From assembly GCA_964057225.1 (NCBI GenBank), contig OZ059895.1, positions 8,556,001 to 8,620,000 on the forward strand: a stretch of 64,000 nucleotides of DNA. Direction: 5' to 3'. Both the position numbers and the translations under genes were made by a program. The stretch comes from Auanema rhodensis. Taxonomy: Eukaryota > Animalia > Nematoda. Below are positions 10,340 through 63,300 of the stretch, one piece after another. How positions within the stretch are numbered: the first letter of the stretch is position 1; the number at the start of each line of letters is the position of its first letter. Below the pieces are notes generated by a model. It was not told the DNA's origin, searched no databases, and worked only from the letters and a program-made list of their open reading frames with translations.

Positions 10340-11920
10340 TGTCTAAAAACGTCTTCAAGTGATTTCAGAATGGAAATTGTTGTCTAATGCGTCTCTTTCT
10401 GTCAACTTGTCATCCAGAAAGTCTGAAAAGTAACAAACTAACGCATTTTTTTTAGGCATATGTTAAAAAATGAGCAAAAAAATAATTAACGCTCTGTATG
10501 TTCTTTAATGTCTATTACTAATCAAATTTAAAAAAAAAAGATTTGCACCCTAAAGGGAAATATCGACAATGCTAGAAGAACAAGTCTTGCCATCAGAATG
10601 GACTGAATCTTCTTATGAAAATTGGATGTACCCCCAAGGAGCTTAAGGGAACGCCACAGGCACGAAAAAATTGTATAACATAGAGAACAAATCTTTAAAT
10701 TTATAAAGAAAATACTGCATTAGTTAGCATGAGGGAAGGACAATATTTGGGTCTTACCAGGGCAAAACATCAGCAATCTTGTCCGGCTCACCAATCTGCA
10801 CATATTTCTTTATACTCGTGAGACGCAGGAAAACCTTTGAAATAGCAAATGGTTCACGAGGACAATTGCTATATTTGTAATTGTATTCATAAAAGAAAAA
10901 AATATTTATTATTTGATAATACTAAAGAATATTTAACCGAAATACTCATATCCGTTCCAAAGTTTAAATATATCAAAATAAACTTAAAAGTAGCTTTCGG
11001 AAAATAAGCCAACTTCAGATCTTCCAAACAAATCAATTACTTTCCTTTTCCTTTTTTATTTGTAAATGTGACAAAATATTTCTCAGGTAGCAATTCTTTG
11101 TTAACATCCCAATCATCAGCAAAAACTTAATGAGGTTATAAGACAAATGTTTACCACGTTCAGAATGAATGGACTAAATTTGGTGACAGTTTCATCAAAA
11201 ATATCACAAACTTGAAAACCAAGTTTTTTAATTATTAAAAAACTAAATTCTTGTTTATTTCAAACCATTTATATTTATAAATTTACAATATATTAAGTTA
11301 AATATAAATCCAAAGTTAATCAATATCATATTATTAATTGAATACAACCGCTTGCAACAACCTTTCGCGCCAAATAAGGTTACATTTAAACTGATTTATT
11401 TTGTTTTTTTTTAAGAAATTGTCATTTCTTTTTAATTTCAAGTATATAATATAGTATTTACTTAATATTTTCTGTTTCAGATTTAACTTACTAAACAATA
11501 AACAACACTTATCAGAAGACTTAGAACAACTCGAAGGAAAAGCAACTATAAATAAGGTATGTCTTATAAATATTTCAAACAAATTAAAAAAATTGCAACT
11601 TTTAAAATGAGAAGTCAGATGTATATGAAACAGATTTTATGCTGCTTCATTACATTTGCCGATAGCGAGCAATTTGCTTTAATGTAAATCGGTGTTTCGG
11701 CCATATTGATCATTGGAGCATAAATTTTGCTAACTGTTTAAACCTACTTGAAATATCCAGATATCTATATTGATTTGAGAGTTTTTTCTGGATTGAATAT
11801 TAACTGTTTAGCAGTAGAATATTATGAGAAAAACATATGTTAATGTATTCTTTATTATAATTATTAGTCTTATTATCTTTATTAGTTATTAATATTAAGT
11901 TTTTGAATGGCTTGTGCTTG

Positions 11921-12948
11921 CTATCCAACAAGTGTTGGGTTTGCTCTATTAGAAACAAGTTGATCTACAACTTCATCTGTGTTGATTTGTGGAAGATTAA
12001 CATTCGGTAAAATGTGTGCAAAATTCATATCTATGTCATTGAATCGTTCATAGAAATGACTCTGAAAGAAAAAAAATGTTGAAACGGTGTGATTGAATTA
12101 TTGTTTTACCTTGAATGGCATGTGGGTATCAGTACCGGGAATCGGAAAAGAGAGTCTAGAATGGAAAATATCCACGGCTTCTTCATCGTGCTTACGTAAA
12201 ACTTCTGTTTGAAAGTCAAACATCTACGAAGATTTTGATTATCTTTTTGTTTGCTTTATCAATACTAACCTCATTTAATCCTGGTATAGGTATATCTAAA
12301 GCCACAGCTGAACTGTCGAATTTCGAACCATCTACTTCTGCTCCCACAATGAAAGAATTCTAAAACTCAGAGTCTTTTCTAATTAATAGTTTCAAGTAAA
12401 AACTTGAAAAGGCTGATGCTGTCCATCTGTGTATAAATGTGGCATTCGAGCATATTGTCTGTAGTGTCGTTTTAAGTCAAGCCCTATAATCTCACAGTGT
12501 ATATATTCAATTATCGTCATGAAATTACCCAAGAAGTTCACTCCTTGAATGGCATATCCGACTCCCCATGAATCACCATAATCATTATTAGAAGCTACTC
12601 CTACCATGTGTGTAAATGGATTTAGTTGAGCATGTCCAGAAAAATGTTTGTCTTGACCCGGCAGTGAAACATCAGGTATTGCTTGTGTCTACTTTAAGAC
12701 GGCTTTAATATACGTATAATATATAAGAATACCTTATGATATAGTTTATTTCCTGCTATATACAGATTATGTAAATATGGTCCAGAACGATGATCAGAAA
12801 CTCCAAAAGGTAATCGAATAAGACCGATTCCTCGTGGTCGAGCACAATAGAATGGAGCTAATTAAAGAGTTTCATTATGTTTTTAACTTAAAATCAACTT
12901 ACTAAGGAAAGACAGGAATACGAGGCTGGATAGCCTTGCAGAGGCCAT
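11921..12948 (-). CDS. Secreted protein of unknown function (signal peptide)
   Basis: Multi-exon frame MASARLSSLVFLSFLTPFYCARPRG...LNPFTHMVG...GDSWGVGYAIQGVNFLG...NRANPTLVG* with short GT-AG introns and a hydrophobic N-terminus. Confidence 0.75.
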
Positions 12949-13827
12949 TAAAGCATGTTATGGTCTAATACTTATCTGCAAACTGTAGATAGATGTACGA
13001 AACTCTACAAACTTTTTAGGAAGATTTCAATAAGAACGATTTTTAAAATAGACGGTTGAATGAAAGGGAAGAATTGAGGCCGAATGATGAAAGTGAATTT
13101 TATCATTGTTGGAGCTGGGTATCCCTTCGGACGAAAAAGAAAATGCGCACGTCCGCAACCGGGAAACTGATAATCACTGAATCATCATTTTCACAGACAA
13201 GCAGTTGAATATATGGCTGAATATGTTGTTGAACCCACGACCAATTTGTATGTGACCCACGGATACATCGTAAGAAATAGTCATTATGATCCAGAAAAAA
13301 GCAGGTCCTATGAACTAGTATGTGCGCTGTTGGATGTCAATTTTTTTTTTCGAAACAGAAAAAAAGTAAAGAAAGTTCAACAATCATTAATATTGAGTTC
13401 AAATTGTTCTATCATATTTTACTAGCCCCAAATCTGTTTGATGGAATAACTTTGTGACAGATATAAGATATATTGTATAAGAAAAGTGGTACAGGTAACC
13501 TTATGTTTATCCCTAATAAATCGCGTTGAAACAGAATCAGCCATCTAGGAGAGATGTTGATCATTTGTATTCAGTGATACATTGGACCGACGTTTGACTA
13601 TAATCTTGATTCGAATAAGAAATGATGTTCAAGTAAAATTAAGGTCGATAGACATCCTAGCTTCAGCGGAAATGAAACTGATGTCGATTGAATGTTTGAG
13701 ATTTTCCTCGAATCAATATTTAAAACGCGCGTTCGAATATAAGAGTTGTGGGAAATTTGAGGTTTAAACAAAACTAAATATCTAATTGTTTATATGTTAT
13801 AGGTAATATTATTCTATATAAGGAATA

Positions 13828-16800
13828 ATGATTAGAGTAAGTCAAGTTTCAATGTTACTCATGTTTGAATGCTTAATTTGTAGCAAACTGACGCTGCAAC
13901 ATCATCTATTAATACAGAGGATGGACATTTCGTTTGGAAAAAAAGACCGAAGTATGATATCCTCATATTTTTAAAGTTTTATCTCATTTAAATCTCAGAG
14001 GATTTGGTTTACGAAGAAATCTAAAAGTCAGCCGAGCTCATGCACCTAAGCCTGTAACAGAACAGCCTGAATCGGTATTTCAGGAACAATTCTTAGTTTT
14101 TTAATATTTTTTCCATATAGAAATCCCTATGTGTTATTCAAAAACCTGTTCGATCGACACCTCTTCAAGATAATGTAGGTTGTGTAATCTAATTGTCTCT
14201 AAAGAAATATAACTTCAAGATTTATGATGTACAAAGGAATTTCAAAGCGAGTGAGCTATATACTTACGAATTTATTGCTGTCATTAGTTCATGGAAAGGA
14301 GCCTTGTATAAAAAAAGATTTCAAATAGTTTTTGATCTTTTGCTGGATACACTACCGCAGCCAGAAGTTGTGCGTGATAGAATCAATTATAAGATTATAG
14401 CAACTCGTTGATTACAGGCAATGATGCTCTGTATTTTTGATTTAGCATCAAAGCAATATCAAGATCTTGGCTCTTTCTATATGTTCATGGGTTTTGAAAT
14501 TAGGCATTCAGATATAAAAGATCCAATATGTTTACCTTATAGGTATGTAATTAAAGAAAAAGAATTATAATTTATTGAATTTTAGGCCAATTGATAATGT
14601 TGATATTCACAGTTTATTAGAAGAAATTAAAGTCATGAAATCAAGCTTTTTAGGATTAAATGATATTACTCATAATGAAGTTCATTAAAAGTAAATGTAT
14701 GAGAAATAATTATATATTTTAGTTTACTATTGATATTTGTTTTGTAAAACAATTATTAGGAAGTGGAGTATCTGAAGTAGCTAAAGTTTCTCGGAAGAAA
14801 AAGGCAACTTCTAAGGATGTCATAGCGGAAAATAATGGTTTTCATGAAATTCATAACTTTATTCCATTATTTCCTTTCAGTAAAAAAGTTTTGTTTGGGA
14901 ACAGCAGTCCTGCAGGGAATGGCACTTGTTAAACATAATAATGATATTGATAACTATGAAATTGAGAAAGAATGGTACAGACTTTCAATTTTAAATGATA
15001 CATCTGCAGAATATAAGGTAATATATTATTCTTTCTTTTTCCTTTTTACATAAATAGATATAGTCAGATATTGCTGTTGCAAAACAATTATTGTTAGACT
15101 CTGGTATTAATAAAGAAGAAGATTTTACTATTAAAGATGTGTCAGCTGTTCAGGTTTGAAACTGAGATGCTTATTATTCATAAAAGTTACTAAAGGACTT
15201 CCTAAGTGGACAATATCAAATTGTTGTATTCAGTGAAGGTCATAACAAATCTCCGATTTATAAAGGACCTAGTTTAATGGAAAAAAATGTTATTGGTATT
15301 ATTTCTAAATGATTTCACGAATTTAAAAATTTAATATTACAGCACTTGTATGTCAAAATGGCCACTATGAACTAATTAAGAAACTGCCACAGTTCGTTGG
15401 AGCTGGATTTTACTGCGTTCACTGTAACGTCAAAAGCTCCTCATTATCAGATCATTATAGGTAAAACTTTAATTGAATAAGTTGTAATTAAGAATTGTTT
15501 CAGTTGTCCTTTACGTTGTCGATTATGTTCATCAATGAACTGTGTCCCTGAAGATAGCATTGAAATTACATGTGAAGAATGTAAACAAACTTTTTATAGT
15601 GAGCAATGTTTTAAAACTCATAAAATGAAAGGTATTATTGTTTATATTATTATTTAAATTCAAAACATATTGCTTTTCAGGTATTCTTGGAAAGAAATCA
15701 CGTTGTGAAAAAACAATTTTCTGTCCTAATTGTCAAAAATTATGCAAAGATATGAAGAGACACAAATGTCACAACTATTATTGTCAGCATTGTAAAGTAA
15801 TTTTTCTATTTTATCTTCCAAATATTATGTTTATGTTCTTAGGTTGTAAGGGAAAAGGGCCATCAATGCAGTTTACCTCCTAAGGAATATGGTGCTGCTT
15901 GGGGATATCCTCAAAAGCGAATATTTTTTCTTGTGAAAGTAAAGCTTTACAATAGACAATTTAAACAAAACATATACTATGTTTCAGTCTGAAAAAATTT
16001 TCAAACCTGACGGTACTTTTATCGAAAAGCCTATGCTGATTTTGGCTATTCGTTTTTGTCCTGAATGTAGGGCCTACTTACCTTCAAGAGTAGTTAAAGT
16101 AAAGGAAATATTGAAAATGATATTCATTGAAATTTTGATTAGGGTGCTCAAATGACTTGCAATAACTGTTCACCAGATGGCTGTCGAACATGGATTTTCG
16201 AGCGTGTATTTAAAGGAAATAGAAACAAGGATGTAGTTCTGGAATTTCTTCAATGGCTTATCAATAAAAATCATTATCGTTTTGCTGCCGTATCACATAA
16301 TTTAACTCAGTTATCTTAATTTGTATTTTTCTTTGTATATTTTCTATTCATTTAGGGGTGTCAGTGATTTAATCATGCAATATTTAACCCGTGAAGATGT
16401 ACCAAAAACGAAAGAATGCATTGTTGAGAATGGACGTTTAAAATATATTGTAATTGAGGGATCTCGGGTTAGTTCAAATTATGTTTTATTATTATCAATT
16501 GATGATTTTAAGCAAAAAATTTGCGATGCTGATCAATTCATCCCAGCAGATATTAGGAAGTTCTCAAGAGCTCTTGGACTATCTCTCAATGATCAAGGGT
16601 ATGTACAGACAAATTTTTGCTTTAACTTTAAATTTTTGTCCAGATATTTTCCTGAAAATTTTATTACCACAGCAAATGTGAGTTACATTGGACCTCATCC
16701 TGCACTTAAGGAATATATTACTGATGATATGTCGGAAGATGATGTGAAATATGTGAAGGAATTCCACGATTCAGAACTAAAAAAAGGAGAAATATTCAAC

Positions 16801-19502
16801 TTTCAAGATTCATTAATTAAGTATTCATCTTTATTTATAAGAAATTTGTTATCACATGAACTTCATTTTAGGCATTCTTACTTAGAACTTGTTCAAATGT
16901 CATTATGTTTCATGACTGTTGAATCTATTATTTATAATCAATTAGGTGTTCGACTGTTTGAGGAAAGTTCTAATATGTATAGAGCAGCTATTTGTGGATT
17001 CAGAAGGTACGTACGTCAATATTAGAAACTTGTAATTTTTTCAATTCAGAAAGTTTCATACTGATAATTCTCTTCCATTAGACAAAGGACAAGGTGCTGC
17101 TTTTCGTCAAACTTTCTCTATGACAGCTATGAAATATTTATCTTGGAGAGCTCATGTGGAACAAATACCAATTGACACAGCAGTAAATGTGGGAGAATAC
17201 AGAGTATGCTTACAACCAAACAGTTGGCATGTGCATTTCATTGAATATAGGTACCTGGTACTCCATTTCATCTTGACGGTTTCATACAGCCATGCGAGAA
17301 ATATCCGAGGGGCTTAGGAATTGATGTTAAGGTATCTAATCGAAAACTATTAAAGTTCATCAACTTTCCTAGGGTTGCTACTGGCATGCTCACGGTTGTA
17401 CCTATGTGCCTCAAATGGTAGCCAGGAGAGAGCTTAAAATTGATACAATTCGTGCCAACGATAAAAAACGTGATGATGAAATTAGGTTAATTCAAATTTT
17501 AAAAAATTTTATTTTGCTTTTTTTATTTTTAGACGTCATATTGACTTAGAAATAGTGTGGGAATGTCAAATTGCTTTACAACGTATGACAGATACAGATA
17601 TGGATAATTACATGAATAAATGCAATTTTGAAGTTTTTTTTAAGTGCATGAATTATTTATTTACAAATTTAATTTCAAGGGAAAAGCTGATATTAATAAT
17701 GCAATCATGCCATTATTTTGTGAAACATTTCATTTAAATTATAGAAAAACGTATGATTATGATAAAATCCATTGCCGAGACATCGTAGAGTAAGTTGGAA
17801 CATTAGGATACTTCTGAGCAACATTATCATATAGTGTACCAGCTATATGCATGAAACTTGATCCTTATCCTAAAGGACCTTTCCGACGAGTACATGGAGA
17901 GTTATTCCAAGTTCCAATTGAAAAACCTGATGATCTTCATCAAGCAACAGGCCTTCTATACTGTGTTGTTAGTTCATATTGAAAATAATGAATACATCTT
18001 GTGTAGGTACTTCCACCGAGTCATATGTTCATGCCATTACTTCAATATAAGCTAGATGATAATGCCATTCTTACTCTCTGCCGAAGTATGATGTTATACA
18101 ACTTAAAATCTAAAATTACTTTTTTGCTTTAAGCATGTACGGAACAGAAAAATTATTCTGAGTGCAAGCATACTGACGCTGAAAGAATGTTTTCGGGCAC
18201 ATGGTCCACGTTTGAACTTAAACTTGCTTTAGAACATGGATATAAGATCGTCAAAGTTATAGGAGTAATAACAATATTTCTTTATTTCATTCCCTTAATA
18301 TTTAATTTTTAGGCTATTCACTGGAACGAATGGACAAAATTTTCAATCGATTCTAATGGAAAACAAACTTCAGGAATTTTTTCTGATCTTGTTGATGCTG
18401 TACTCGGAAATAAGATTGTGATTCTAACCATCTTCCTCATCTTCTTTCAAACATTTTTCTAGGCTTCGGCTGGATATCCTGAGGGAATGAATTCGGATAT
18501 GGAACATGAAAAGTATATAACTGAGATGACAACAAGATATGCTATGCCAATCGGCAAAGATATAGTCAATAAAAATATTTATGCTCAAAAGATGGATGAT
18601 GCTCTCTTAAGAATTGTATTTGTTTATTTTTATTTATTAGTTTATTAATATTATAATATTTAGTGGAAAACTTTTTCTGAGAAAAGTGATGTACCTGTTT
18701 GTGAAATTGCTCGATCATCATCAGATTTATGGAAAATTTTAGAAGATCCAACGTTATTGGTGAAGGAAATTAAAGTATTCATTCTAATTTTTCCCTCTTA
18801 AACTTTAATTTCATAGGCTGTTAACGATGAATCTGCCTATTTTTGTTATGGCAAAAAGAAAGAAAATGCCATTCCTTTGTTTGAGACGGTGACATTGGTT
18901 GAAGCTTTGACTGCTTCACATTCAAGATGTAGAATTTTCCGATTCATTCAAAATTTGGAAAATTTAGAAAGAGATCTGTTTTACATTGGTTTGTTTTAAT
19001 TAAGTTTTAAACTATTTTCTACTATATTATAGATGAAAAACACATTATTTACCGTAGTAATGAAGATAATGACCCATTATTTGATTTGACTCCTGAATAT
19101 CCTAAATCTACACCTAAGGATGATATAATTGAATTCTTATCTCCAAGTGCTGGATGTTACCTCTTGTCTCGCTCATCCGAAAACAGCATTACAAATGCTT
19201 TACAGGTTATACTGATTCCTGACTTCTGAATTGTTTTTAATTTTCAGGTCGTCGGCTTCTCAAAGATTGAGGCGGCATGTGATATTCAAATTCAAGCCGT
19301 GCGAGATCAAGTCGCAATGTTATTAGAAAACCAATGTGACTCGGTAGATATTTCTTATGAACACATCGAACGAGATTCTTTCTATCTTCTCAAAAATGTG
19401 ATTAAGACTAAACGTCTTGAAAGCAGACTTGCATCCAGATATATAAAGATAGGTGAAGATGATTCTGTGCAAACATGGCCAATTGGTACAGCTTGTGCAT
19501 GA
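13828..19502 (+). CDS. Intron-rich Polinton/Maverick-derived protein-primed DNA polymerase B homolog (roughly 1350-1400 aa); polymerase and exonuclease motifs degenerate, VSR-like nuclease retained
   Basis: One open frame through about 34 short introns. Polinton pPolB landmarks appear in order: OTU-like FCL...GHYELIK, Cys/His zinc cluster, SHN, GYFPENF..N..YIGPHP, FNFQ, GEYRV...LDGF...GCYWH...WEC, YPKG, LCRTC...CKHTDAER..GTW...EL..AL..GYKI, K.AS.GYP, and C-terminal TWPIG. Confidence 0.9.
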
Positions 19503-19720
19503 TTTGTTGTTCATTCATATATATTCAAAAACGTTTATTTTATGTTTTTCAATTATTTTTAATTTTATGTACAAATTGTTCCAATAGTAGTAGCTAGCAA
19601 TCGATACGACTTACAAATTTACAGAAACTAACTGCAATTTGAAAATAATTCTTATTTTTTGTACATAATCGTATATACATAATGTAACCAATGAAAGTTA
19701 TTATTATTATTGATTACTCT

Positions 19721-21633
19721 TTAAATTTTACTAATTGGAACTTCTTCAGCTATCAATAATTCTCTATCCCAATCGGGCATTTGAGCGGGAGTTCCCAGGA
19801 ATTTCGCGAAAAATGCGATAGTTTTTACCCAAGTTAATTCTTGACTGCGGGCATGTAAAACTACTTCACCTCCATAACCACAGTAGAAACCTTAAACGAT
19901 TGTTGAAGAACTGTTACTGTAAAGATAGATTGATTACCTTGATATTTGGCATAAACTATATCATGATGAGGGAAATATGGTGGCTCCATGATATGTCCTC
20001 CGTTGACGATGTCAACTTCAAGGTTGTGGTGGCCCGTTTCTCTAAGCTGACGCATCTTTGCATGACTTGCGAAAATGGAATTGTTAACGAGATCATCTGC
20101 TGATGCTATGAATCGGTATGCTACATCCTTGGCTACACGGTCAAATGGAATTATAGTTTCGGGAGACGGCTTCAATGTCATCAATATACGATCAGTTACC
20201 AGTATTCCATTGATAAAATGAATTTTAGAATCATCTAATCTGTAGAAAAAATGTTATTCATAGTATAAGGTATGCTATCACTTACTCAGCTTCTTTAAGC
20301 GGAACACCGTTTTCGAGCAGTGTAATGTAACGGTTTTGAAGATAGGGTCCGTTGATTGATACTACAGCTTTAATCTGCAAGATAAATATGAAATAAGACT
20401 TTACGAATTAGAAAAGTACCTGTGGGCAACGTGTAGAAATAATATCTACAAGAGTGGCTCCAAAAGATACTCCTTGAATTCCTATGAAGTTGCCGGTATA
20501 AGGTCTACTAACCAACCATTCAATTGCTTTCTGAATTTCAATGCAATTAATTGAAGCATTGGAATGTGATATTTACTGTAAAATATTGGAGATCAACTTC
20601 CTCTAATTTGTTTGGGAGATCTTTGAATTGGAAAAATGCCAAACTAAACACAACAAAACCTTCAGATGCCAACATTGAACCTTTGTGTTCATGTAAACCA
20701 CCTCCAGTACCCGAAATATCTAAGACTGTTGGATAAGGTCCATCACCTAAAACATTGAATAATTTAAAAATAACTGTGTTTTGCATTGTTTTACCTTGAG
20801 GCTTAAACAAAGTTCCATGAACTCCATCGACACTTATTTCTTCTCTGATTAAAGATGGATGCATCCAATGTTTTTTGATCAATAGAGTGTCAAGAAGTCG
20901 ATCTCCAATATCGTAAAGTCTAAGATTATTCCAATCGGTTAATGCATATCAATGAATAATATTTCCTACTGAAGCTTATAGATAAAAGGAATTGGTGGAG
21001 TACAGCGTAGATAGCCACCAAAATCAAATTCCGGAGTTGGTCTTTGGCTCATGAAAAGACCCATTGCGTCAGCCTCTGGAATACCAAAAATGATTTTTAG
21101 ACTTCAGATTAATTTACAGAGTTGTAAATTTTTTTGTTGTTAAATATCATTTATACTATAGATCGTAAATGTTTTTGATTTTGCTGCACAGTCAAAGCAT
21201 ACCGTTATAAGTTCCTCGAATTGGAGTGTTGGTTGGAACATCAATTTCTCCTGCGGCGTCAGCTTTATATGAAGCATATGCAGCATGTCCTCCATATTTA
21301 TGTTTCAATCTAAATTTTGAAAATGTTTCTTTATACTGTTGAAATATTATGTTAAGCGTTAAGCGATATAGTAATAGATAAAATGTGCAGTTGATATAAT
21401 GTGACTTTGATTCATAAGGATTTTTCTTGTGATAAGAAGAAAATGAAGCAATATGCAAAGATTGCAAATCAAATGACATTATAACGAAGTAAGCTACATC
21501 AATGCGTGAGGTTAATTTACAACTAGGCTCACCTCATGACCATTTTGTACGGTTCAAATGGTTTCAAATTTTTAGCTTTGATGTGAACGCGCTCGCGTTG
21601 CATGGTATCGGGTTTGTCGATCCACAGCGACAT
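19721..21633 (-). CDS. Acyl-CoA thioesterase / BAAT-family alpha/beta hydrolase ending in SKI (PTS1-like)
   Basis: Family motifs ADAAGEID, DISGTGGGLHEHKGSMLASEGF, nucleophile GVSFG and catalytic-His region GGHIMEPPYFP. The last exon ends EEVPISKI*. Confidence 0.92.
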
Positions 21634-38570: not shown

Positions 38571-41500
38571 ATGCAGCAAGATGCTTCATTGTCTGGGAAG
38601 ACGTGTTCTCTCGTCAGAGAATGTTTTTTACCTCCATCCCACTTAAATATAAACAATGGATTAGGCGATATAAAAGTGTTAAATATAAATTCTAGGTTAG
38701 ATCTCTATTTGGTTTATATGTACAATAATTTAATTTAGAACGGCTTTTTATTCTGAGCTCAGAAATGTTTCTACACAAGGAGCTACCTGCTTGAAAGAAT
38801 GTTGTAGGAAGTATTTAGTCTTGTAATCTTCATCTCTTCAAAGTATTTCTTTAGACAATCTTATGGCGATATGCAGTATTTAACAAGGGGAACTAGTTCT
38901 GTAAATTTTAACATATTAGAAACTTCATTAGCTGGATTTTTCTTAAGGTTAATTCATATGAGCGGCCTGAAATGGATTATCAAAATTCGATGGAATTTTT
39001 GCTAAACACTGAGAATATGAACCAGTTTTATGATTATCGGACTATCGAGATTAACCCGGTTACTGGAAGGAAAACTATCTATGAAGATAGCTATAATAGT
39101 TCTGGTGTACCAGTGCAATATTCTTATATCTCTTACGCACCTATTGTGGATCCAAATAATGACATAACGAAGAAAAATGAAAGTTCTTATGTTCAATCTC
39201 AAAAGAGTTCTGTTCCAAAATGTAGTACTGTTGTCGCTGCTCCTCTTCGTCTTGAACAGATTAAAACTCTTAGCAATAAGCAGACTGAGCCGAGCACCTC
39301 TACTCCTGTTCTTAAAGAATCTGAAACTGCTCCAGCTAGTGTCTCAGCTAGTGCTTCAGCTAATGTTCCAGCTAGTGTCTCAACTAGTGCTCCAACTAGT
39401 GCTCCAACTAGTGCTCCAACTAGTGCTCCAACTAGTGCTCCAACTAGTGCTCCAACTAGTGCTCTAGTTAGTGATCCAGTTAGTACCATTTCTGAGAGCG
39501 GTCATGCGCGTAGAAAATCTGGACGTGGACGTAGGAAATCTGGACGTGGTCGCCCTGCAAAGAAATATGAACCAGCTGTTTTGGCAGAAAGTACCTTAAT
39601 TGATCAGGCTGTTCAATCTCCTGCACCTATTGAAGAGAAAAATAATTCTGATATACATAACAAAACTCCTGGTAATAATTACTAGGTTTTAATTTACACA
39701 CATTTCTGTTTACAGAGGGTAATACATCTAGAATTCCTTCGAAATATTCCAAAATACTGGTATTATTTGATATACCTTTACAGTTAAATTTTTTTTATAG
39801 GGAACTGGAAACAATGATGCTAGACTTCTATTTCAGACTCCTATGTCTGCTGTAAGTTTTGTGTAACTTATAGTTGATGTGTTTATGTTTAGGTAAATTC
39901 CGATAATGAATGTTCAGATCTTGGGTTCACTAGAGGAACTTCAGTTCCTGCTTTGGTATATGAGTACTGCTGTGTCTTTTTTATAATCATTTTAGGATTT
40001 GGATACACCGAAAAATTTTTCAAATAGTTCTTCACGGATACCAGCTAAATACCGGAATGCGCTAATAGGGGTTGAAGAATTGTTTCATACAAATCATAAC
40101 AAAAATAATTTAGTCTTTTAAAGAAAAGTTTAACGACAGCATCGCATCAATCGAATCTGGAGGAACAAATGCACTAGAAGAGTCATGCAATGAAACCTGT
40201 AAAAGTGATAGTGTTTTTTTTTCCGATGAAAATTCTGAAGTTTGTTTTAATATTGAGAAAGAATAAGATCATTTCTCGTTTAGGATCGCAATGATGATAG
40301 CCGATTGGATTTGAGTAGCGTATATCAAACACCTGTTGTAGATTTTGTATGAATTTATAATTTTATTCTCCTAATTTCAGAAGCAGGATTTAACTTCTTT
40401 GGATGCCACATTCACTGACGGTACCATAGCAGCGGTTTGATAATATAATTAACTAAGTGTACTAAAGCTGCTTCTAGACACCTAATGAAGAATTCTTCAC
40501 TCCTTCTTGTGACGATATAATACAAACTGGCAGTCAACCAAGAAGCCGAAGAAGGCGACGAAGACCTCTGGTAATCAGAAAAAGTCGGAAGAAGTCATAT
40601 GCTCCGCCTGAATATCATTTACCTAAAGTTCGTTGTTATTTTATTTTTTATCGTTCATGTTTTCTTTAGACATTTATTCGAGAAGCGTATGATCTTCAAA
40701 TTCCCGCCGCAACTCTAATTGAATCTAGTGGTAACTTCTTAAGCGAAGAATCTATTCAGGATGATTTGATTGCCCGGGCTAAATATTTGGTATGATATTA
40801 TCAAATTAAGTAAAGTTATAATAAGAATAGGATACAACTGAAATAACAAAGTCTGGTGGAGTTGTGTGGATAAATCTTGGTTTACAGTTCAAAATGGAAG
40901 CTTTATATAGGTTTTTTCCTAATAAAGGAGGTTTTCCTTACTACTGTTTTATAGAGCACCTTATCCTCCTCGTTTTGCACTACTTAATGAGCTTTATGTT
41001 TGTCGGACATGTTTCAGCTATTACGCTACAGCCCAAGCTTTGACCAGTCATATGGTTTTTTTGGAAATGTTATTGTTTTAATTAAGCTTTTTTTAGGAGA
41101 GATGTGTTTTCCAAACAATGCCCCCAGGAACCGAAATTTATCGGGATACTGTCAATCATCTTTCAATATTTGAAGTCCGAGGAGATGATCAGCAAGTTAG
41201 TGTTATTGAATTTTAACTTATGACCATCGATTTTAAGTTGTATTGCTCAAATCTGTCGATGTTAACGATGCTTTGGCTACGAGACAAGGTAGTATACTTA
41301 GATGTTCAACCATTCTCTTACTTTGTTCTTGCGACTCCTAATGCAGATGGTCATTTTCTACCTCTAGGCTATTTTAGTAAAGTAGTTAAATTTTCTTCCA
41401 ACTGATTCAATTAATATTTTTTTCAAGCAAAGAGTAAATGGAGAGAATCATAACTTATGCTGTTTTTGCATTCTTCCATGTTTCCAAAAACGTGGATTTG

Positions 41501-60301: not shown

Positions 60302-63300
60302 GGGAGGGGTAGTACCAATCTATAGAGAGAAAACGAACGATTCTATTATAATAATTAAATGGAAATATGGAAATATAGAATCGAAAATGAAAATAAAAGA
60401 TATTAGAAGCAGAGATGTCGTGGAAACAGAAGATGAAGAAATACCAGTGATGGTGTGACTACCGATAAAGCTTCTCGAATGAAAAATAAAACATGAAAAT
60501 TTCAAAAGAGTTGTGCCTTACATATATGGTTAATCCGTAACAATGAAATAAACAAAACAATAATAACAACAACAACAATAACAAACTTGAAGCATATACA
60601 TAGATAGATAGATATGTTTATATAGTTAAATTACTGTAATATATAATAATAAATAATCAATAAACAGTATAAAATATTGAAATGAGAAAAAAACATAAGG
60701 AAAACAAGCTATTTAGGGAAAAAAACATAAAAGTGAGGGAGATATATTGAAGATATAATTGAAGAAAAACGAAAAAGGATATGATTATTTGATCTGTGTA
60801 CATCTTCTTCTATCCTCAACCACTTTAACGTTCATGCCCTTTTCTAACCAACCATCAACATTAACTCAAAAAAGATGTAACATTAGCTAATAAATATAAA
60901 ATCATTATCTATCTATTTATCTAATCATCATAAATTTTTATTTTTTAAATTAAATAAACAATTATATTTTCTTTTTTTTTCATAAATATATACATATAGT
61001 TAAATTTCTAAATCTATTTAATTAAATAAATGATGTTAAAGATGATATTTATAAATACTTTTTATAATAGTTAAAGAAAACATATAGATAAATACATATA
61101 GTTAGATTTAATATATTTAAATAAAATAAGAAAAATAAAGAGATAAGACTGTTTTGAGTTGATGAAAAATACATCAAGAAGTAGAGAATCATATAACTTA
61201 TATGAAATTAACGATTGAAAATACCTAATTACAACATGAAATCTGATACTACTTAGGATATTCGTTTTCTATTCATTTTTCAAGTTTCTTCATCGTTTTT
61301 TTTTTATTTTTTTCTGTTGTAAATTGTATATTTAAATAATATTTTATTTAAAATATAATTTATATATTTATAATTAAGATAACTATGTATTTATATAGAA
61401 ATCATTAGTTAAATTAAATATTAGTTAAATTAAAATGCAATATATTTAAATATTTTTAAATTTATTTAATAAAAAAAATAAATAAATTTTAAATTATATG
61501 TTATAAATAAATTGTAATTTTTTTTTTAAATATAAAATATAATATAACAAAATAAAAAATTATAAATAATAAATATTATATTTAAATATTCGAGATAAAA
61601 GAAATATCTAATTATATTAATTATTTTAAATATAAATTTTCCATTTTATTAGTATTAATATATATTAAAATATTTTAAACTATATTTATAAAAAAATATT
61701 TGAATTTGTATGTATAAATGCTTCATTCCAGCATTCTTCTTCGGCGATTATGTTGCTCTATGATTCTTCATCCCCCTAATTTGCGTAATTATTCATCTCT
61801 GATTCAATGGAAGTTTCCAAAAATTGATTTATTCGTTTATATATAATATATATATATTTAGATAATAGTTGATCAAAAAAAGATTAAATTTAAGTTTAAA
61901 TTAAGTTAAAAGATCAGATAATTCAATATCATAATTGATTATACATATAAATATTTATTCAAATAAATATTATATTATTTATAATAAAAATAATTATATA
62001 AACAAAACAAATTTTTTATTATCTTTTGAAACATTTGTATTTTATTATTATTTTTATATATTAATCTATTATAATATTATTTATATAACTTCATTAACTA
62101 TTTTAAAATTTAAAAAAAATTGTGAATAAGTGAATTTTCCTTTAATTTTTTAAAACCAAGTTTCATTGCATGGAAATAGATAGAAGAAGAAGCTTCACCA
62201 ACAATATTAAGATGGTTTATGAGTTTTACAGCTGCTCATTAGAGCTTTTCATGGCAAATACTTGGACGTCACCAGCCAGATGTGAGAACAGAGCAGGAAA
62301 ATTTAAATTTCACTTTAGACATCTGCAGTTAACTTATTTTCATTTTTGTCAACTTTAACGTATTTATCGTCGTTTTTGCTTATTTTTGTTTAAAAAAAGA
62401 AAAATAAAATAATAAAAATTTGTTTATTTATTAGATCTTCTAATATACATTTCGTTTCATTACTAAATTTTTTGGGGCTAAGACCAAAGAAATACAATGA
62501 AATCTGTCATCGTATGTTCTCTGATACGAAAACAACTTCAAACTCTGAGAATTCACATCAAGTCAGCCACTACTATCTCAACCACCGGAATCATATGCGC
62601 CCCACGAGGCCAGATAACGTCAGATAATGTTATGAGCGGATATTTAGAGAGAAGCAGAGAAGAATGTGATCCATATAAAAGCTAAGAAGAAGTAGAAGAA
62701 GAGAGAGGGGGTGGTGGAAGTAAAATCGTAAATGCTTTTCATAACATGTGTACTGAATAGAAGAGAAAACAACAAAAAAAGATGTTTGTTGTACGAATAA
62801 AGAAGTTTTTAAATATTCTTTTAACCATATTATATCATTTATAAATTATTTTTTAAATAAAATATAAATTAATTATGTTTAATTGAGAATTTTTGCCTAA
62901 GACCTAAAATCAAAAAAATCTATTTGAATGTTTAACCAAATATTTCAATTCCTTTTAGTTATTTTTACATAAATTCTATTTATTATTATAATTGTTTATT
63001 GTTTATTTAATATTTCTTAAAATATAATTAACTATAATACTTTAAATACCCCCCCCCCCCCATTCTCCTTTCTTACAGCCCTGTTCTTTGCCACATTTGG
63101 ATAACAAGAGAAGTATATACAGTATTCTTAATATATTTTTATTATAATTATAATTTATTTATATATTAATATTAGATATACTATCAATCAAGTTTACGAA
63201 ATCTTTTTTTCTGTAACTCTTTTACTGAAAATGATTCTTTTCCCTGTCGTCGTATGTCTTTTCACTTGTAGAGAAAGAGGGTGGAAGAGTGGGAGGAAGG

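Follow-up and report, generated by a model that had tools for sequence, protein, structure and literature searches.

The window, by which we mean the whole stretch of 64,000 nucleotides that was analysed, is AT-rich eukaryotic DNA with numerous short introns, and on its forward strand it carries the polymerase-derived gene that is our subject here (Table 1). When 102 open reading frames (ORFs), chosen out of the 274 of at least 55 aa in the window, were scanned against Pfam, the neighbours turned out to be an ion channel, an acyl-CoA thioesterase, an ATP_bind_1 protein (GPN-type), Ariadne and Prp31, together with a ligand-gated channel, an MFS transporter, a MYST acetyltransferase and mS39, and the same 102 ORFs gave no Pfam match to a Maverick integrase, capsid, packaging ATPase or protease. 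Nor were terminal inverted repeats found among the 25 longest inverted repeats listed, all of which are AG/CT microsatellites. Two further features of the stretch can be recorded in their own right: a 12/36-bp tandem repeat at 39328-39484, within a 257-aa ORF (PT-repeat match) upstream of the MYST acetyltransferase exons, and an extremely AT-rich kilobase at 61001-62000, where GC is 0.14 and short imperfect tandem repeats occur.

Table 1. The pPolB-derived gene and its domains, in window positions; P0001 is the protein of Auanema sp. JU1783.
Feature	Position	Strand	Basis
Transcript of pPolB-derived gene	11474..19697	+	RNA-like contigs; 5' start inferred from contig offsets
CDS, 35 exons, 1377 aa (ATG 13828, stop 19502)	13828..19502	+	alignment with P0001 and RNA contig offsets
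N-terminal ~75 aa, basic	13828..14230, end approximate	+	alignment; 67/75 identical to P0001
vOTU-like cysteine protease domain	14820..15398, approximate	+	conserved columns; 103/134 identical to P0001
Cys/His-rich zinc-binding region	15399..15890, approximate	+	98/117 identical to P0001
Exonuclease domain (Exo), Exo I and Exo III lost, Exo II altered	15893..17070, approximate	+	motif table, alignment; 196/285 identical to P0001
VSR-like endonuclease domain, aa 776-886, four exons	17111..17578	+	sequence matches; fold of ortholog P0157; 106/111 identical to P0001
Polymerase palm, fingers and thumb (Pol)	17618..19502	+	motif A Asp kept, motif B and second motif C Asp lost; 307/478 identical to P0001

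The gene begins with a 5' non-coding exon that ends at about 11554-11556 and is followed by a 2.2-kb intron and then by exons separated by short introns; the coding sequence holds 34 of these, all GT-AG and each of 39-51 nt. RNA mapping over 11500-21500 drew on four runs that come from a single study and are catalogued as probable RNA, and RNA-like contigs of 4356, 5759 and 4381 nt (one contig per run, X10-X12) cover the gene, with a joint 11554>13801 and, in X10, a transcript end at 19697. At least eight GT-AG joints of the gene are found in RNA contigs among the joints listed for this region, and between anchors the model gives spliced lengths of 1503 and 2403 nt, which agree to the base with the offsets in the contigs, so the gene is transcribed and spliced as modelled. 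Contig depth over the gene roughly equals that over the neighbour downstream in X10-X12 (ratio about 1) and drops to about 0.08 of it in X14, although contigs do not measure RNA level; this roughly tenfold lower gene depth in X14 (13800-21300), with the neighbour unaffected, may hint at stage- or sex-dependent expression. In the DNA runs, a single X7 contig spans 13800-19600 with zero differences to the window, X7 and X9 show no sequence differences at the gene, and no second, long divergent copy appears among the matches listed, which is a weak sign of a single copy.

Two other transcripts overlap the gene. Inside its 2.2-kb first intron the RNA contigs reveal a spliced antisense transcript on the reverse strand (11869-13759), and Pfam found nothing below E 0.09 in nine ORF pieces of it. 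At the other end, between 19502 and 19697, the 3' ends of the gene and of a convergent transcript on the reverse strand, that of the acyl-CoA thioesterase (about 19502/19670-21311), run into each other, and in X11 the two were assembled as one contig.

The product shows homology to the Maverick protein-primed polymerase (pPolB) and keeps its domain order of terminal protein, vOTU, Exo and Pol. Its N-terminal stretch of about 75 aa precedes the region that matches the terminal-protein domain (domain order as given in the available text of PMC11161782), and the following aa 76-205 are identical to the Auanema sp. JU1783 protein at 93/130 positions. That basic N-terminus aligns poorly to Caenorhabditis pPolBs and may have been acquired in the host for targeting or docking. 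A phmmer search with residues 1-1190 of the JU1783 protein returned 3,422 matches, the best 150 of which comprise that protein itself and pPolB-like proteins, with those of C. remanei and C. brenneri in the lead. Trees of the VSR domain (quick IQ-TREE; 62 rows, ids up to P0060, fragments <95 aa excluded) and of Exo plus Pol (FastTree; 46 rows, ids up to P0045, fragments <450 aa excluded) both place the gene as sister to the Caenorhabditis Maverick pPolBs, with support of 97 and 99, respectively. On these alignments and trees the gene is best read as a descendant of a rhabditid Maverick pPolB. The VSR insert inside Polinton pPolB has itself been described before (10.1101/2023.08.22.554363); the accessible part of that report places it in marine-nematode and mollusc pPolB2 only and not in pPolB1. 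We, by contrast, see clear VSR motifs in pPolBs of terrestrial Caenorhabditis (P0002-P0005 and P0008). In the ESM Atlas, eukaryotic clusters were retrieved at 0.90-0.93, in one of which 16% of members carry PF03175.

The polymerase itself has fared badly. Neither of the two Auanema-type proteins retains Exo I, Exo III or Pol motif B; in both, Exo II is altered and motif C, canonically DTD, reads DEK. The window protein keeps the Asp of Pol motif A, and its motif C has Lys in the column of the second Asp, where 128 of 151 relatives have D (22 gaps and one N make up the others). From what is known of the family it follows that polymerase and proofreading activity have probably been lost, in keeping with the ‘dead polymerase body’ proposed by a first-pass annotation of this DNA. 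Against profiles made without Caenorhabditis rows, the window protein scores 115 bits for Exo and 210 for Pol, whereas four motif-intact Caenorhabditis proteins score 204-215 and 370-408 bits. PF03175 does not match the JU1783 protein at E<=1 (the C. remanei protein P0004 matches at 1.5e-47), nor does any other Pfam family, and this escape may explain why the ortholog was left unannotated. The C. brenneri protein CAEBREN_29797 (P0006) is another pPolB whose Exo and Pol motifs are damaged and whose VSR residues are kept; it is nested on a long branch in the Caenorhabditis Maverick clade and looks like a case of independent decay.

Maverick core genes are described as being without introns (10.1101/2022.07.12.499685, in its available text). 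With its 34 introns, spliced RNA, ordinary host neighbours and no other Maverick genes detected, we regard this one as almost certainly a domesticated host gene, just as the first-pass annotation had supposed.

The best starting point for asking what such a gene might do is the VSR-like insert. The motifs that had been quoted for it at 17105..17570 are all present on the forward strand, spread over four exons (17050-17203, 17251-17331, 17373-17485 and 17533-17632) whose intervening GT-AG introns measure 41-47 nt. The codons of greatest interest are those for D815 of LDG (17275-17277), D831 of IDVK (17323-17325), H838 (17385-17387) and C882 of WEC (17564-17566), and the full set of residues present comprises E804, D815, D831, K833, C835, W837, H838, H840, C842, D867 and C882. 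D815, equivalent to Vsr Asp51, is D in 150 of 151 relatives and also in both orthologs described below, and Y836-W837-H838 align to Vsr F67-W68-H69. The counterparts of Vsr Asp51, Trp68 and His69 are thus kept, as are those of the four zinc ligands, which in the E. coli enzyme we take to be Cys66, His71, Cys73 and Cys117. The counterpart of Vsr Asp97 depends on the register: in one it is D867 (E in the ortholog P0157), phmmer puts it three residues later, and the column is variable in Mavericks. The acid before GCYWH had been described as D in place of the usual E, and indeed, among the 131 of 151 pPolB relatives that have GCx[WYFHI]H, it is E in 103 and D in 6. The D831-x-K833 pair is rare (D in 6 and K in 1 of the 131), and it coincides with the canonical (D/E)xK motif. 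For Vsr itself, Asp51, His69 and Asp97 are given as catalytic, with Phe67 and Trp68 intercalating, and in homing endonucleases of the Vsr-like kind there is, besides, an invariant acid where Vsr has Phe62 (PMC2677866, PMC4081097).

The assignment to the Vsr type is borne out by sequence and structure comparisons that are both led by E. coli Vsr. When the JU1783 protein was compared with PDB sequences, the top three matches were E. coli Vsr (E 0.02-0.03). The fold was tested on a model of the ortholog fragment P0157 (pLDDT 78) rather than on the window protein, and the best of 48,161 chains was 1cw0 (Z 9.1, rmsd 4.0, 112 residues), with 1vsr the best Foldseek match (E 0.086). Next came a Toxoplasma mitoribosomal protein (Z 8.2), the FAST-RAP region of FASTKD4 (7.2) and I-Bth0305I (6.8). 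Vsr-like folds such as those of the mitoribosomal protein and the RAP module of FASTKD4 are mostly RNA-binding. A homodimer prediction for the VSR domain scored 0.00, a result that weighs neither for nor against a dimer.

Between species the VSR domain is conserved to an unusually strong degree. The window protein is identical to that of JU1783, the sole full-length ortholog found, at 997 of 1388 alignment columns, and the VSR domain (Table 1) stands well above the remainder of the protein (891/1266; p=1.4e-10), above the zinc region (p=0.005) and above the vOTU domain (p=4e-5). Within it, aa 794-869 form a run of 76 residues identical in the two proteins, and only 4 of 5,000 block shuffles matched the best conserved window. 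Among 9,623 control pairs of other pPolBs, most of them more distant than the Auanema pair, mean identity is 0.31 for VSR vs 0.39 for Pol; VSR exceeds Pol in 747 of these pairs, by at most 0.136, while the excess in the Auanema pair is 0.30. The closest comparable control pair (P0002/P0005) has 0.74 for Pol and 0.68 for VSR, and the motif-damaged C. brenneri protein has no VSR excess either (0.51 vs 0.53).

The claim that this insert is the best-preserved catalytic module therefore stands as far as divergence between species is concerned, but it misses a second module. On sequence grounds the gene also has an apparently intact vOTU protease, which the first-pass annotation had overlooked: Cys235 (14892-14894) and His347 (15363-15365) are both retained, as they are in most of the 151 relatives (the Cys in 128, the His in 137), and Cys plus His is the invariant catalytic pair of the pPolB vOTU (PMC11161782, available text). 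Scored against profiles made without Caenorhabditis rows, the window protein reaches 67 bits for vOTU vs 24-43 for the Caenorhabditis proteins and 70 vs 43-62 for the zinc region, while for VSR it has 58 vs their 65-77, so that by fit to Maverick profiles the vOTU and zinc regions are preserved at least as well. With catalytic residues and profile fit retained in both, the VSR and vOTU modules look alive, and VSR looks the more constrained of the two between species.

The searches yielded no more than three ortholog proteins, of which one is a fragment. This fragment (P0157) is a 166-aa gene call on a 22-kb Logan contig; its identity is 53-54% with the two Auanema-type proteins and 32-39% with Caenorhabditis pPolBs, and in the VSR tree it clusters with the Auanema-type proteins with a support of 97. 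Its in-frame insertions sit exactly at the window introns 17204-17250 (phase 0) and 17486-17532 (phase 2), its end coincides with the start of intron 17633, the ends of the insertions translate as GT and CAG sites predict, and both insertions hold low-confidence stretches of the model; we infer that three intron positions are common to P0157 and the window gene. In addition, DNA runs X13 and X15 contain, among the matches listed, a divergent contig that matches 17370-17432 (11 differences over 63 nt in X15) and has a Thr-to-Ser change in common with P0157, and this is probably another species' copy of the exon. Judged by these comparisons, orthologs exist in at least two other nematodes, and the gene is thus older than the Auanema pair. 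The catalytic D, D/E and H, whose absence from orthologs would have spoken against a nuclease, are all present in the JU1783 protein and in P0157, the latter keeping D, the acid (as E), H and the zinc ligands. Neither word searches nor the best 150 of the 3,422 profile-library matches yielded an ortholog that could be assigned outside Auanema, which is weak evidence of absence because P0157 (150 bits) itself falls under the 157-bit floor of the matches listed. In JGI metagenomes an exact degenerate pattern gave 0 matches, and the 29 loci picked up in a scan with P0157 are weak throughout (E 9e-7 or worse) and include no ortholog.

What, then, might the protein do? We think it probable, judging from the retained residues and their conservation, that it is a DNA endonuclease that works on the worm's own chromosomes. 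The dead polymerase and the zinc regions would form a scaffold that holds DNA, the VSR domain would cut it using Asp815, Asp831 and His838, and the unchanged 76-residue surface would read a fixed target.

A rather unlikely alternative, although the one that survives best, is that the gene is domesticated and its VSR domain binds nucleic acid or protein without cutting, the working part being the vOTU domain as a protease or deubiquitinase, or in a structural role. The poxvirus protein F12 offers a precedent for the reuse of an inactivated DNA polymerase (PMC4304020, available text). The vOTU Cys and His are retained, the held-out Caenorhabditis Maverick proteins score lower than the window protein against the Maverick profiles of vOTU and the zinc region, and the Vsr-like fold is common to RAP-type proteins; moreover, catalysis needs less than invariance of a whole surface, and the near-invariance could equally reflect a binding surface. 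Set against this, about half of the domain has changed in P0157, yet D815, the acid at 831, H838 and every zinc ligand are still in place there, and the vOTU domain is the significantly less conserved of the two modules.

We consider it improbable that the gene serves in anti-Maverick defence, with the dead polymerase binding Maverick origins or terminal proteins and cutting or blocking the replicating element. Descent from a rhabditid Maverick lineage that persists in Caenorhabditis to this day, and the keeping of the entire domain order, speak for such a role. Defence genes, however, usually evolve fast, and this VSR domain is almost frozen. As for a decaying Maverick relic whose VSR conservation is due to chance or is intrinsic, degenerate pPolB copies do occur in relatives (P0006), but this reading is largely refuted, and in our view very nearly eliminated, by the 34 introns, the open 1377-aa frame, the spliced RNA contigs, the intron-sharing orthologs, a neighbourhood without any other element gene detected, and control pairs whose slow domain is not VSR.

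If the product is indeed an endonuclease of the worm's own chromosomes, the most likely target that can be named is the palindromic Sequence For Elimination (SFE) of the Auanema/Oscheius clade, which would be cut by a dimer. In A. rhodense and O. tipulae, programmed DNA elimination (PDE) makes breaks at related 29-bp palindromes, bound by ‘as-yet-unidentified’ machinery that is probably a dimer (2026 preprint; PMC13060919 for O. tipulae), and the O. tipulae motif, both necessary and sufficient, has been likened to homing-endonuclease sites and is likely to be read by a dimer (PMC13060919). In the clade around Oscheius, elimination was seen in 10 of 10 species tested, and in A. freiburgensis the telomeres of the germline are lost (10.1101/2025.08.21.671558). 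The Vsr-fold homodimer I-Bth0305I, for its part, cuts the centre of a pseudopalindrome (PMC3239194). The first-pass annotation knew of no identified break-forming nuclease for PDE, and this agrees with the 2026 preprints, whose available text describes the chromosome-breaking enzyme of nematode PDE as unidentified.

The link between the predicted VSR nuclease and cutting at the SFE is circumstantial, and we hold it only tentatively. PDE occurs widely in Rhabditidae and is the ancestral state in Caenorhabditis (2026 preprint; 10.1101/2025.08.21.671558), yet among the named records listed in these searches the ortholog was found within Auanema only, and this counts against a PDE role. So does the occurrence of PDE, with different motifs, in the Mesorhabditis clade and in basal Caenorhabditis, according to the same sources. 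The window shows no sign of a DNA-elimination break site, with three GGC-N3-GCC matches and zero tandem TTAGGC. Public proteomes exist for some of the PDE species in these two groups. The gene might also, at somewhat less than an even chance for all such roles taken jointly, process the genome in another way, for instance by acting on DNA ends, in repair or in the handling of germline chromosomes.

The full proposal, which we would put forward as a possibility worth pursuing and not as the expected outcome, is that the domesticated Maverick polymerase is the missing SFE endonuclease, whose Vsr domains would form a dimer at the 29-bp palindrome and cut somatic chromosomes there, the dead polymerase body meanwhile holding the new ends for telomere addition. 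If true, it would provide an animal counterpart of the ciliate PiggyMac, with a DNA-virus replicase as the source rather than a transposase. In any case, the gene is a concrete, lineage-specific PDE candidate in culturable genera, and CRISPR and END-seq have already been used in O. tipulae (PMC13060919). The domesticated gene is real and previously undescribed. Our search of the literature on Maverick/Polinton domestication, VSR, nematodes and DNA elimination, with subscription papers mostly outside it, found no paper on the gene or on such a link, nor any account of an animal in which a Maverick polymerase has become an intron-rich host gene, its Pol motifs lost and its nuclease and protease modules kept. 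The accessible text of 10.1101/2023.08.22.554363 likewise gives no tested activity for the VSR of a Maverick pPolB.

Among known systems, the closest are the Caenorhabditis Maverick pPolBs (C. remanei CRE_29165, which is P0004; C. brenneri P0002 and P0005; C. nigoni P0003), which have the same domain order, form the sister clade and include the best library matches, at 413 and 392 bits. They keep the Exo and Pol motifs and match PF03175; the window gene has lost those motifs and, unlike them, has 34 introns and host-gene neighbours, and its slowest domain is VSR. The E. coli enzyme Vsr (PF03852; 1cw0, 1vsr), the top match in both sequence and fold, has the same Asp51, Trp68, His69 and zinc-ligand counterparts, but is a stand-alone T:G mismatch nickase, whereas the window VSR sits inside a 1377-aa protein and has Asp at the Vsr Phe62 position and Lys at the His64 position (D-x-K). 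An acid at the Phe62 position is also found in I-Bth0305I (EDxHD family, 3r3p), which has the same Vsr-like fold (Z 6.8); this enzyme, however, is encoded in a phage intron, has NUMOD DNA-binding domains and is probably without zinc, while the window VSR keeps the zinc ligands. For the way in which the gene might work, the useful analogy is PiggyMac of ciliates, likewise a nuclease of a mobile element adopted by its host, with the difference that PiggyMac is a transposase of shown function and ours a predicted Vsr-fold nuclease inserted in a dead viral-type polymerase. RAG is another domesticated transposase at work in programmed rearrangement. Finally, chordopoxvirus F12 is likewise an inactivated DNA polymerase put to new use (PMC4304020, available text), but it is a viral morphogenesis protein, whereas the Auanema gene is cellular and its nuclease and protease modules are apparently intact.
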